From Acidimicrobiia bacterium (lineage in GTDB: Bacteria > Actinomycetota > Acidimicrobiia > Acidimicrobiales > Bin134), in the NCBI GenBank assembly GCA_009842675.1, contig VYEX01000062.1, positions 102,295-166,294 on the forward strand: DNA of 64,000 bases. Direction: 5' to 3'. This document shows positions 4,550-6,473 of this stretch, one piece after another. Each line of letters begins with the position of its first letter. The stretch's first letter is position 1. Position numbers and translations under genes: made by a program. The notes below the pieces were generated by a model, which made no database searches, was not told the DNA's origin, and was given only the letters and a program-made list of their open reading frames with translations.

Positions 4550-5326
4550 TTGGCCGCTAACCTTTCGGCGGTGTCTCGTTGGCCGTTCTTGGATCACGAC
4601 GGCCCGATCCCCATCGCCCATCGGGGCGGAGCCTTGGAAGGGCCAGAAAACACCATGGCCGCGTTTGCCGCCGCCATCGACCTCGGCTTCCGATACGTGG
4701 AGACCGACGTGCACGCCACTCGAGACGGCGTGCTGGTGGCGTTCCATGACGAGGGATTGAAGCGGCTCAGTGGGCGCCCGGAGGCCATTGCCGACCTTGC
4801 CTGGCGAGATCTTGAAACGGTGCGGGTCGGCGGTGGACACGCCATCCCCCGCTTCGAGGACCTCTTGGAAGCCTGGCCCGATCTCCGGATCGCGGTCGAT
4901 CCCAAGCATGACCAGGCCACTGTGCCGCTCATCGACGTTCTTCAGCGGTCGGATGCCATCGGCCGTGTCTGTGTCGGATCATTCTCTGGGCGCCGCCTAG
5001 CCACCGCTCGCCAGTTGGGCGGACCTCAGTTGTGCACCGGACTCAGCCCAAAAGAAGTCGGGCAGCTTCAGGCTGCCTCAGCCGGGCTGCCCATGAGAAT
5101 CAAAGCCGGCGCGTGTGCCCAGGTTCCCCCGACTGTCAAAGGTGTCCCGCTAGTCCACCAGCGGTTCGTCGACGCAGCCCACGACCAAGGACTGGCGGTG
5201 CACGTTTGGACCATTGACGACGCCGAAGAAATGCAACGGCTCCTTGATATCGGGGTGGACGGCATCATGACCGACCGGCCTACTGTGCTTCGCGACGTGC
5301 TCATGGAGCGCGGCACGTGGAACTGA
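4550..5326 (+). CDS. glycerophosphodiester phosphodiesterase family protein
   Basis: IAHRGGALEGPENTMAAFAAAIDLGFRYVETDVHATRDGVLVAFHD is the GDPD signature. The start is uncertain: TTG 4550 lies only 14 nt from the divergent neighbour, and GTG 4571 is an alternative. Confidence 0.8.
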   Translation: MAANLSAVSRWPFLDHDGPIPIAHRGGALEGPENTMAAFAAAIDLGFRYVETDVHATRDGVLVAFHDEGLKRLSGRPEAIADLAWRDLETVRVGGGHAIPRFEDLLEAWPDLRIAVDPKHDQATVPLIDVLQRSDAIGRVCVGSFSGRRLATARQLGGPQLCTGLSPKEVGQLQAASAGLPMRIKAGACAQVPPTVKGVPLVHQRFVDAAHDQGLAVHVWTIDDAEEMQRLLDIGVDGIMTDRPTVLRDVLMERGTWN

Positions 5327-5433
5327 GGGGTCGTTTCAGGCCCAAAATCGAGCTCTGCCCTGTGGTTAAATCGGTGTTTCTTGGGGATTTCTACTCACAG
5401 CAGTGGAAAACCCTGTGGATTTTGGATTTCCGC

Positions 5434-5461
5434 TTGACCTGGCATTTTCCCGCGCTATGGT
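5434..5461 (+). promoter_or_regulatory. sigma-70-like promoter (TTGACC - 16 nt - TATGGT) driving the downstream structured RNA
   Basis: TTGACC at 5434-5439 and TATGGT at 5456-5461. The region just upstream is locally AT-richer and carries a repeated CCCTGTGG (5360, 5411). Confidence 0.5.
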
Positions 5462-5467
5462 ATGCCC

Positions 5468-5747
5468 ACCTACCAGAGACGAGCGGAGGTAGCTGACCGA
5501 GCAGGAGCCCGCAAGGGCAAGGGTTCGACAGAGTTCCGCAGGGTCGCTGGAACGGGCCGAGGAAGTCGGTGGCACCACCGAAAGCCGAGGGCCGGGAAGG
5601 AGACCAGGTGCCGCAAGGATCTGGGGGGTAGGGACCGGGGAACCGGAGGGCGCAAGCCAACCGGGGAACCGAGACCGAACGGGATGGCCCCGAGAAGTCG
5701 ACCGGTTTCGGCCGGGAGGTTACTCGGGGCCTCCTGCTTTTCACCGG
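5468..5747 (+). ncRNA. unassigned structured RNA or long structured 5' leader (about 280 nt)
   Basis: Lies in a 460-bp gap with no credible ORF.
- GCAA-capped hairpins at 5507-5518, 5604-5624 and 5643-5664.
- A CGGUG/CACCG hairpin at 5567-5580.
- ACCGGGGAACCG repeated at 5634 and 5660.
- A 9-bp helix pairing 5686-5694 with 5723-5731.
- Possible closing pairing of 5499-5506 with 5732-5739.
- A TTTT run at 5738-5741.
The ends are approximate. Confidence 0.5.
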
Positions 5748-5789
5748 CGCTTCGCTTCTCAGTCCTCGCCCATAACTAGGGTATGCGCC

Positions 5790-6473
5790 GTGAGTGGACC
5801 CGCAGTCGCATTGCTGCACGGACTGGCCGGATCGGCCCGAAGGACCTGGGGAGACAACGCCTGGATCGACCTTCTGGCCGATGCAGACCGAGAAGTCATT
5901 GGGATTGACCTGATGGGCCATGGGACCGCCCCCAAGCCCCATCATTCCGAGGGCTACGCCGACTTCGACCAGCACGTGATCGACCATTTCCCTGACGAAC
6001 CCATCGACGCCATCGGGTTCTCACTGGGGGCCTACACCCTGTTGTCCATCGCCTCCAAGACCCCGGAGCAATTCCACCGGCTGGTGGTGTCCGGGGTGGG
6101 CAAGAACCTGTTCGAGAGGGATGAGGACCACAGCCGCATGATCCTTCACGCCGTGACCGGAGAACCCGACCCCGAGAACCCCGAAGCGCTCCACTTCTCC
6201 ACCCTGGCCGACGATCCCGAGGCCGACCGGGAGGCACTCGCTGCCCTTCTAGCCAGCCGCACCGCCTTCGACACCGATTGTCTGGCCGATGTCCGCGTTC
6301 CCACCCTGGTCGTCGTGGGCGACAAGGACTTCGCCTATCCCGCCGACCAACTGGTCGAAGCCCTCCCCGACGCTCGCCTGGTCGTCCTCCGGGGGGTAGA
6401 CCATTTCGCCACCCCCAAGTCTTTCGACTTCATCGATGCCGCGCTCGACTTCCTTGACGCCCGACCCTTCTAG
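5790..6473 (+). CDS. alpha/beta hydrolase fold protein
   Basis: 227 aa with a GTG start. Contains LLHGLAGS...GFSLGAY (nucleophile elbow GxSxG)...VVVGDKD...DHF. Confidence 0.7.
   Translation: MSGPAVALLHGLAGSARRTWGDNAWIDLLADADREVIGIDLMGHGTAPKPHHSEGYADFDQHVIDHFPDEPIDAIGFSLGAYTLLSIASKTPEQFHRLVVSGVGKNLFERDEDHSRMILHAVTGEPDPENPEALHFSTLADDPEADREALAALLASRTAFDTDCLADVRVPTLVVVGDKDFAYPADQLVEALPDARLVVLRGVDHFATPKSFDFIDAALDFLDARPF

Follow-up and report, generated by a model that had tools for sequence, protein, structure and literature searches.

What does the 463-bp gap at positions 5327-5789 of this stretch of DNA encode? The stretch, hereafter the window, comprises 64,000 nt of the genome of an Acidimicrobiia bacterium, and the gap is flanked by a glycerophosphodiester phosphodiesterase (GDPD) gene and an alpha/beta hydrolase gene. 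A preliminary description, made from the letters alone, had proposed a promoter-to-terminator structured RNA of no assignable family, either independent or a riboswitch-like leader of the hydrolase gene. The comparative analysis presented here indicates that positions 5355-5741 very probably form a self-contained gene for a structured non-coding RNA on the plus strand, and that this RNA belongs to a family absent from Rfam 15 and conserved through the class Acidimicrobiia. It is likely that the product is a stand-alone, trans-acting structured small RNA (sRNA) under DnaA-box control.

The limits of the gene were drawn from its conservation. A DNA search matched the region in 21 of the 24 other genomes of the same genus, 20 of which were aligned with the window (alignment A1, 21 sequences); in the remaining three (G013, G002 and G014, of which one is assembled into a single contig), this search gave no match to the RNA at the DNA level. 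Across the 20 aligned genomes, positions 5355-5741 formed a single, sharply bounded block containing the upstream boxes, the promoter and the RNA, at least as conserved as the flanking coding genes. Identity between species ranged from 81 to 99% in the predicted RNA and from 81 to 100% in the box-and-promoter part, compared with 77-99% and 81-92% nucleotide identity in the GDPD and hydrolase genes, respectively. Conservation began about 110 bp upstream of the transcription start and stopped directly after the T-run at 5738-5741, and the short spacers on both sides, including the 48-nt spacer before the hydrolase gene, did not align between species. Indels of 1, 2, 8, 32 and 47 nt within the RNA break the reading frame and exclude a protein-coding role. 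The plus strand folded with z = -4.3 over 5465-5750 (0 of 200 shuffles as stable), compared with z = -1.3 for the minus strand, on which the invariant G-U pairs also become C-A; a minus-strand RNA was rejected on both grounds.

Scanned against Rfam 15 at gathering thresholds, the whole window gave no match, and a scan of 5250-5900 up to E = 10 returned noise alone (EBV sisRNA-2, F6 and a microRNA, far below threshold), in agreement with the earlier failure to name a family. A covariance model of the last 70 nt of the RNA, its 3' hairpin (R1), identified a single locus in each of 82 genomes among the 201 of Acidimicrobiales, representing 65 of 148 genera. An exact pattern scan of public genomes yielded at least 120 loci; among the matches listed, nearly all belonged to Acidimicrobiia, and the carriers included Candidatus Poriferisocius, Iamiaceae, Microthrixaceae and the cultured Aquihabitans daechungensis (DSM 27986). 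Candidatus Poriferisocius, a sponge symbiont group, is also among the close relatives of the window genome. Outside the genus, nhmmer with the genus profile aligned only the last 60-100 nt, full-length alignment being restricted to the genus level, and the 3' hairpin was the sole part conserved in sequence between families. The RNA bodies varied across families from about 210 to 580 nt, with a variable number of GNRA-capped hairpins.

Repeated units were observed in several of these loci. The last ~34 nt of the RNA are repeated about 78 nt downstream in G006 (L013, 1890-1923) and G004 (L014), and G210 (L039, 121314-121566) possesses three tandem hairpin copies 93 nt apart. In L064 and other loci of the soil subfamily, a YC-GCAA-GR hairpin module recurs four to six times, separated by GGGAAGCC-like spacers, which suggests that the RNA body grows through module duplication. 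In addition, a 40-nt piece of the RNA (window 5526-5565) occurs with 95% identity at a second locus in a genus member (L026; G021 contig C16:36291-36330), beyond which the sequences diverge, and may be a gene fragment.

The comparative fold, with 83 proposed base pairs, was evaluated over 23 genus-level sequences. In total, 95.1% of the cells were standard-paired, compared with 33-51% when the partners were slid by 1-3 columns, and both sides had changed in 14 pairs, compared with 7.2 ± 1.6 in shuffles and 1-8 when slid. The fold comprises three near-continuous helical rods (long rod I with an optional branch, hairpin II and terminator hairpin III), broken almost solely by purine-purine mismatches and capped by GNRA or UUCG (apical loops GCAA, GCAC, GCAA and UUCG). 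Nearly all unpaired bases are purines (G or A), and the predicted RNA contains 40.5% G and 10.6% U. Its parts are the following:

5468-5741, plus strand: predicted mature RNA of about 274 nt, with ends set from the promoter, the terminator and the conservation limits
5469-5628, plus strand: rod I, with P1 (5469-76/5621-28), P1b (5483-86/5611-14) and P3 (5537-5610)
5491-5535, plus strand: P2, optional branch hairpin with the cap GCCC-GNAA-GGGC; two-sided changes at 3 bp of the basal stem, seen in 6 sequences
5631-5676, plus strand: hairpin II (GG-GA-CCGG, then CCGG/CCGG, tip GGC-GCAA-GCC), its strands derived from the 12-nt direct repeat
5680-5741, plus strand: hairpin III, intrinsic terminator (stem 5680-5736, then CUUUU)

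Rod I ends in an invariant GGUG-GCAC-CACC tip on P3. The two GCCGAGG copies noted before, the first of which starts at 5556 and not at 5557 and the second at 5584, pair with each other around a tandem G-A (CCGAGG/CCGAGG), and the same helix / tandem G-A / helix module also occurs in hairpins II and III. P1b and the P3 base (5537-45/5602-10) each reached 97% pairing; pair 5538-5609 occurs as G-U, G-C and A-U, and pair 5544-5603 as U-G, C-G and U-A. The register of P1 is ambiguous (88% paired, compared with 79-91% in the alternative); in G063 it keeps 8 of 8 pairs, including a change from C-G to U-A. The P2 branch is missing in five of the 23 sequences (G022, G008, L083, G136 and G063), trimmed to ACUC-GAAA-GAGU in G023 and G018, and present as a shorter version in G017, the behaviour typical of a dispensable extension. 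The nested arrangement of hairpin II is favoured by the changes in G063 (UUCGGU/ACCGAG and AGGCG/CGCCU) and in G005 (CUCGGC/GCUGAG). At A1 columns 301-308, L004 (G003) has an extra 8-nt copy, ACCGGGGA, which is a third copy of the hairpin II repeat unit.

Hairpin III is built from CGGGA/UCCUG, GGCCCCGAG/CUCGGGGCC, AGUC/GGUU, a tandem G-A and CCGGU-UUCG-GCCGG, followed by CUUUU, and its inner stem covaries across families (CCAGC-GAAA-GCUGG in G033). A simple terminator scan missed it because the stem is longer and more interrupted than the scan permits. With its own promoter, a GC-rich stem followed by a U-run, and conservation confined to the interval, the locus reads as an sRNA gene with an intrinsic terminator.

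All repeats and helices of the preliminary description were recovered to within one base, among them the 12-nt direct repeat ACCGGGGAACCG at 5634 and 5660 and the 9-bp helix 5686-5694/5723-5731. The idea that the helices would be conserved and covary in relatives held for the overall fold, and two of the individual pairings fell away. The local GCAA hairpin at 5604-5624 was 86% paired and is outcompeted by the long-range P1b and P3 base, with their higher pairing and three pair types at two positions. The domain-closing pairing of 5499-5506 with 5732-5739 uses one strand of the P2 branch and cannot be conserved because that branch is absent from five of the 23 genus members, has a short stem in two and is shorter in one; UCCUG 5732-36 pairs instead with CGGGA 5680-84, which lengthens the terminator stem.

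Two alternative functions can be weighed against this architecture. Several GNRA tetraloops, three tandem G-A modules, near-all-purine loops and a single copy per genome across the class recall large structured RNAs of the raiA, OLE and ROOL kind, in which such elements would support a compact three-dimensional fold with a biochemical or architectural job of its own. Such a job is rather improbable here, since no sequence is conserved between families outside the 3' hairpin, the changing length and hairpin number of the body are unlike a fixed catalytic or ligand core, and raiA itself gave no match. The raiA motif RNA (RF03072) has been reported in Acidimicrobiia among other classes (PMC10861870), and the present RNA resembles it as a large structured RNA of that class without an assigned biochemical function; it was rejected as a candidate, as RF03072 had no match in this region even at E = 10 and its best score in the genome (20.9 bits, with a threshold of 101.3) lay elsewhere.

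Less probable still is a base-pairing sRNA acting in trans on mRNAs, with a conserved single-stranded stretch as its seed. The promoter-to-terminator organisation is that of most bacterial sRNAs, and some loops, such as GCAC at the rod I tip, are invariant in the genus; however, conserved unpaired stretches almost never exceed 4-5 nt, unpaired bases are almost exclusively G or A, conservation between families is confined to a fully paired hairpin, and 274 nt with 83 pairs would be unusually large and rigid for this type.

The stand-alone, trans-acting RNA favoured here is preceded by its own promoter and by an array of sites that the preliminary description had overlooked. The repeated CCCTGTGG recorded there, with copies at 5358 and 5411, is part of a phased array of four DnaA-box-like sites:

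5361-5369, plus strand: box 1, TGTGGTTAA, the weakest copy (GGT for GGA), present in genus relatives and 21 bp upstream of box 2
5382-5390, plus strand: box 2, TGGGGATTT, a TCCCCA variant matching [AT]G[GT]GGA[AT]; this variant is common in the genome's own dnaA-dnaN origin region
5402-5410, plus strand: box 3, AGTGGAAAA, with a core invariant in the 21 genus sequences, 12 bp from box 4
5414-5422, plus strand: box 4, TGTGGATTT, invariant in the 21 genus sequences and beginning 20 bp upstream of the -35 element
5434-5461, plus strand: sigma-70-type promoter with TTGACC (-35), a 16-bp spacer and TATGGT (-10), from the promoter scan

The promoter had been proposed before and withstood the scan as the only promoter-like site in 5200-5900, where shuffles expect 0.1. 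Among the 21 genus sequences, TTGACCTGG and, upstream, GTGGAAAACCCTGTGGATTT were invariant and GCTATGGT was nearly so (GCTAGGGT in G022), and transcription is expected to start at about A5468. The four same-strand boxes are spaced by 21, 20 and 12 bp and lie about 50 to 105 bp upstream of the start, a spacing that would place them on about one face of the helix. The box-ACC-box spacing of boxes 3 and 4 was also found in an Iamiaceae relative. TGTGGAT is the reverse complement of the classical DnaA box core, TTATCCACA, and box 4 is identical at 7 of 9 positions to the reverse complement of the E. coli DnaA box, TGTGGATAA.

The box definition was taken from the genome's own origin region after the first, stricter patterns (TGKGGAWW etc.) had failed to pick up the locus. 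In Actinomycetota the origin usually lies in the dnaA-dnaN spacer. In the window genome this spacer (C72:9237-9479) is AT-rich and contains nine [AT]G[GT]GGA[ATC] copies in about 170 bp, roughly half being of the TCCCCA type. Nowhere else in the 3.39-Mb assembly is the motif so densely clustered, and the spacer is likely the oriC. The region upstream of dnaA, which holds rpmH, rnpA and yidD, was rejected as the origin. In nine other Acidimicrobiia genomes, the origin region contained the same two box variants. Triplets of same-strand boxes packed into 40 bp were restricted to two places in the window genome, one of which is formed by boxes 2-4. The other (G000 C17:176761-176790, CTGTGGATATGTGGAAATAGCTGTGGATTCC, with a fourth box within 100 bp) lies about 10.5 kb past the window end, with a DNA methyltransferase gene (MGKIVFGDNLPVLQGLPDASVDLIYVDPPFNTGK...) about 75 bp downstream; judging from its boxes, it may be a second DnaA-controlled promoter.

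Box enrichment extended across the family. In the 200 nt ahead of 138 distinct loci, the density of sense-strand boxes was 0.28-0.64 per 50 nt, compared with a background of 0.02-0.04 (about 15-25 times higher), and two or more boxes lay in the 130 bp ahead of the -35 element at 96 of the 117 loci with a TTGAC-type promoter. In two distant families the boxes are set at a constant distance from the -35 and in a constant orientation to it. The locus thus has, at the level of its letters, what would be expected of a DnaA-regulated promoter, namely several boxes of the genome's own type near the promoter, and DnaA control of the RNA promoter is on balance plausible.

An array of phased, origin-type boxes that is rare in the genome and conserved across families could also serve mainly to titrate or recycle DnaA, as do datA, DARS and the DnaA-box clusters of Bacillus, with the RNA gene serving the site (transcription might, for example, clear or load DnaA) and its product being secondary. 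This explanation is very unlikely, given that the RNA body itself is strongly selected for structure, that the fixed distance and orientation of the boxes to the -35 in two distant families fit promoter control, and that the second cluster precedes an ordinary protein gene, that of the DNA methyltransferase.

The last explanation concerns the neighbouring genes, which serve here as context only:

4550-5326, plus strand: upstream neighbour, glycerophosphodiester phosphodiesterase gene (Pfam GDPD, E = 1e-42)
5790-6473, plus strand: downstream neighbour, alpha/beta hydrolase gene (Pfam Abhydrolase_1/6)

The RNA had been placed about 45 nt before the GTG of the hydrolase gene, and its T-run does end 48 nt upstream of it, at 5741. 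A cis-acting leader or riboswitch, in which ligand sensing would control read-through of the terminator into the hydrolase gene, would suit this position on the same strand, the GDPD-RNA-hydrolase order maintained in most genus members and the possible alternative pairings around the terminator in G000 (GAGCAGGA/UCCUGCUU and GGAGG/CCUCC), but it is the least probable of the explanations considered, since the alternative pairing strand sits in the dispensable branch, conservation is lacking in the spacer that precedes the hydrolase gene, a separate promoter with an upstream regulator array serves the RNA, Rfam gave no riboswitch match, and the neighbours change: one of the two was lost in each of three genus members (G063, G008 and G136), among which G063 carries the RNA with the downstream hydrolase gene gone, and in other families the 3' hairpin lies beside different, unrelated genes. 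The leader alternative of the preliminary description is therefore not supported and its independent promoter-to-terminator RNA is, by the halt of conservation after the T-run and by the unrelated neighbours in other families; as far as the evidence goes, the alpha/beta hydrolase gene is not regulated by the RNA.

For the trans-acting RNA under DnaA-box control, the following mechanism is proposed. DnaA bound to the four same-strand boxes would modulate an already strong, near-consensus promoter, so that RNA output would track the state of the replication initiator. The stable, rod-like scaffold RNA would then act in trans through a protein bound at the 3' hairpin, where the conserved GAG-R-AG / CU-A-CUC mismatch would be the recognition element; such a role as a stable protein-binding RNA is evenly poised between true and false. 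As for the partner, it could be the transcription machinery, which would make the RNA the Acidimicrobiia counterpart of 6S, Ms1 and CoRP. The choice of RNA polymerase is a guess and an unlikely one, and the combined proposal, that the family is the abundant RNA polymerase-binding RNA of Acidimicrobiia with its synthesis wired directly to DnaA, is more doubtful again.

The RNA polymerase idea draws on the carriers' complement of known RNAs, in which neither 6S (21 genomes) nor an Ms1-type locus (16 genomes) was found. Each bacterium has been proposed to have one abundant RNA polymerase-associated RNA, some of which escape current searches, and bacteria without 6S or Ms1 have been argued to carry an unrecognised equivalent (PMC11077062). 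The 6S model (RF00013) had no match in the window nor in the 21 genomes (the window genome and 20 relatives). The present RNA shares with 6S a rod of interrupted helices, a sigma-70-type promoter and the profile of an abundant housekeeping sRNA, its abundance being presumed, whereas 6S possesses a closing stem and a large bubble that mimics an open promoter, neither of which is present here.

Ms1 (M. smegmatis Ms1, M. tuberculosis MTS2823 and S. coelicolor scr3559) binds the RNA polymerase core (PMC4191392, PMC9130861), and Ms1 candidates have been defined by adjacency to a HAD-IB (phosphoserine-phosphatase-like) hydrolase gene (PMC9130861). Like Ms1, the present RNA is a stand-alone structured sRNA (~230-300 nt) of the same phylum, with one copy per genome, weak sequence conservation and a host without 6S. 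Unlike Ms1, it is not beside a HAD-IB gene: when PF12710 (HAD) matches were compared with the RNA positions in 16 RNA-carrying genomes, the nearest was 14 kb away and most lay hundreds of kb away or on other contigs, and the two HAD genes of G000 have tightly packed surroundings with no large adjacent gap. Against scr3559, blastn gave a best E of 0.31 over 9-19 nt and nhmmer with the genus profile gave no match; the 3' hairpin also differs, and binding to RNA polymerase is hypothetical. An Ms1 identity was thus rejected both by the synteny definition and by sequence. A DnaA-box array is not known for Ms1, whereas the present gene has a DnaA-box-like one.

The CoRP RNA of Corynebacterium (516 nt) binds both the RNA polymerase core and the holoenzyme (PMC11077062). 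It resembles the present RNA as a lineage-restricted structured RNA of an actinobacterial group without 6S and Ms1 that escapes homology searches; it differs in lying between tRNA genes, in being about twice as long and in being cleaved into two pieces, and homology was neither seen nor expected.

Several points weigh against the reading as a whole or against its individual steps. The start, the end and the abundance of the RNA at 5468-5741 are all inferred, its protein partner is hypothetical, and genus members almost always keep it between the same two genes, which leaves some room for a local role. Half of the boxes are of the TCCCCA variant, off the classical DnaA box, and a different protein binding at the origin and at the RNA promoter would explain the pattern just as well; with a -35 already near consensus, an activator may be needless. 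RNAs with a similar 3' hairpin in further Actinomycetota orders and classes (L181-L185) have arrays of CGCGAAA/TTTCGCG boxes instead, and the origins of these genomes still carry normal DnaA boxes, so DnaA control, if real, would be confined to Acidimicrobiales and not universal. For the RNA polymerase step in particular, the supported fold lacks both a 5'-3' closing stem and a large central bubble of the 6S type, and the comparisons above point to no similarity to Ms1 in sequence or synteny.

Two further candidates were set aside. RNase P (RF00010) matched elsewhere in the genome (C29:41576-41941, 244.6 bits) and not in the window, and a sponge of the CsrB/RsmZ type was rejected because the 21 genomes contained no PF02599 (CsrA) and the apical loops lack GGA.

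Acidimicrobiia are abundant in sea water, soils and sponges, and their RNA biology is almost uncharted. A single-copy, class-wide structured RNA outside Rfam would fill one of the gaps noted in PMC11077062, and a 3'-hairpin covariance model would serve to annotate hundreds of genomes even if the function proved ordinary. Control of an abundant regulatory RNA by DnaA, if real, would let replication status reach gene expression by a route undescribed in other bacteria; if the RNA both binds RNA polymerase and is wired to DnaA, it would represent a previously undescribed link between initiator state and global transcription capacity. The DnaA-box array offers a concrete, testable handle, and the cultured Aquihabitans daechungensis DSM 27986 an experimental entry.

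Control of a non-coding RNA by a cell-cycle regulator has a precedent in CcnA of Caulobacter crescentus, whose transcription is driven by the master cell-cycle regulator CtrA (PMC8959179). Both sRNA promoters have sites for an essential replication or cell-cycle regulator, those of the present gene being predicted. The CtrA-driven CcnA gene sits at the origin and its RNA base-pairs with the ctrA and gcrA mRNAs, whereas the present RNA lies off the origin, has DnaA-box-like sites and looks like a rigid scaffold. The promoter region also varies within the family: four loci of soil Acidimicrobiaceae (L060, L067, L071 and L072) possess four TGGGGA boxes and one ATTTCGCGAAT palindrome adjoining the -35 element, the counterpart of which in the window is TGGATTTCCGC (5423-5433).

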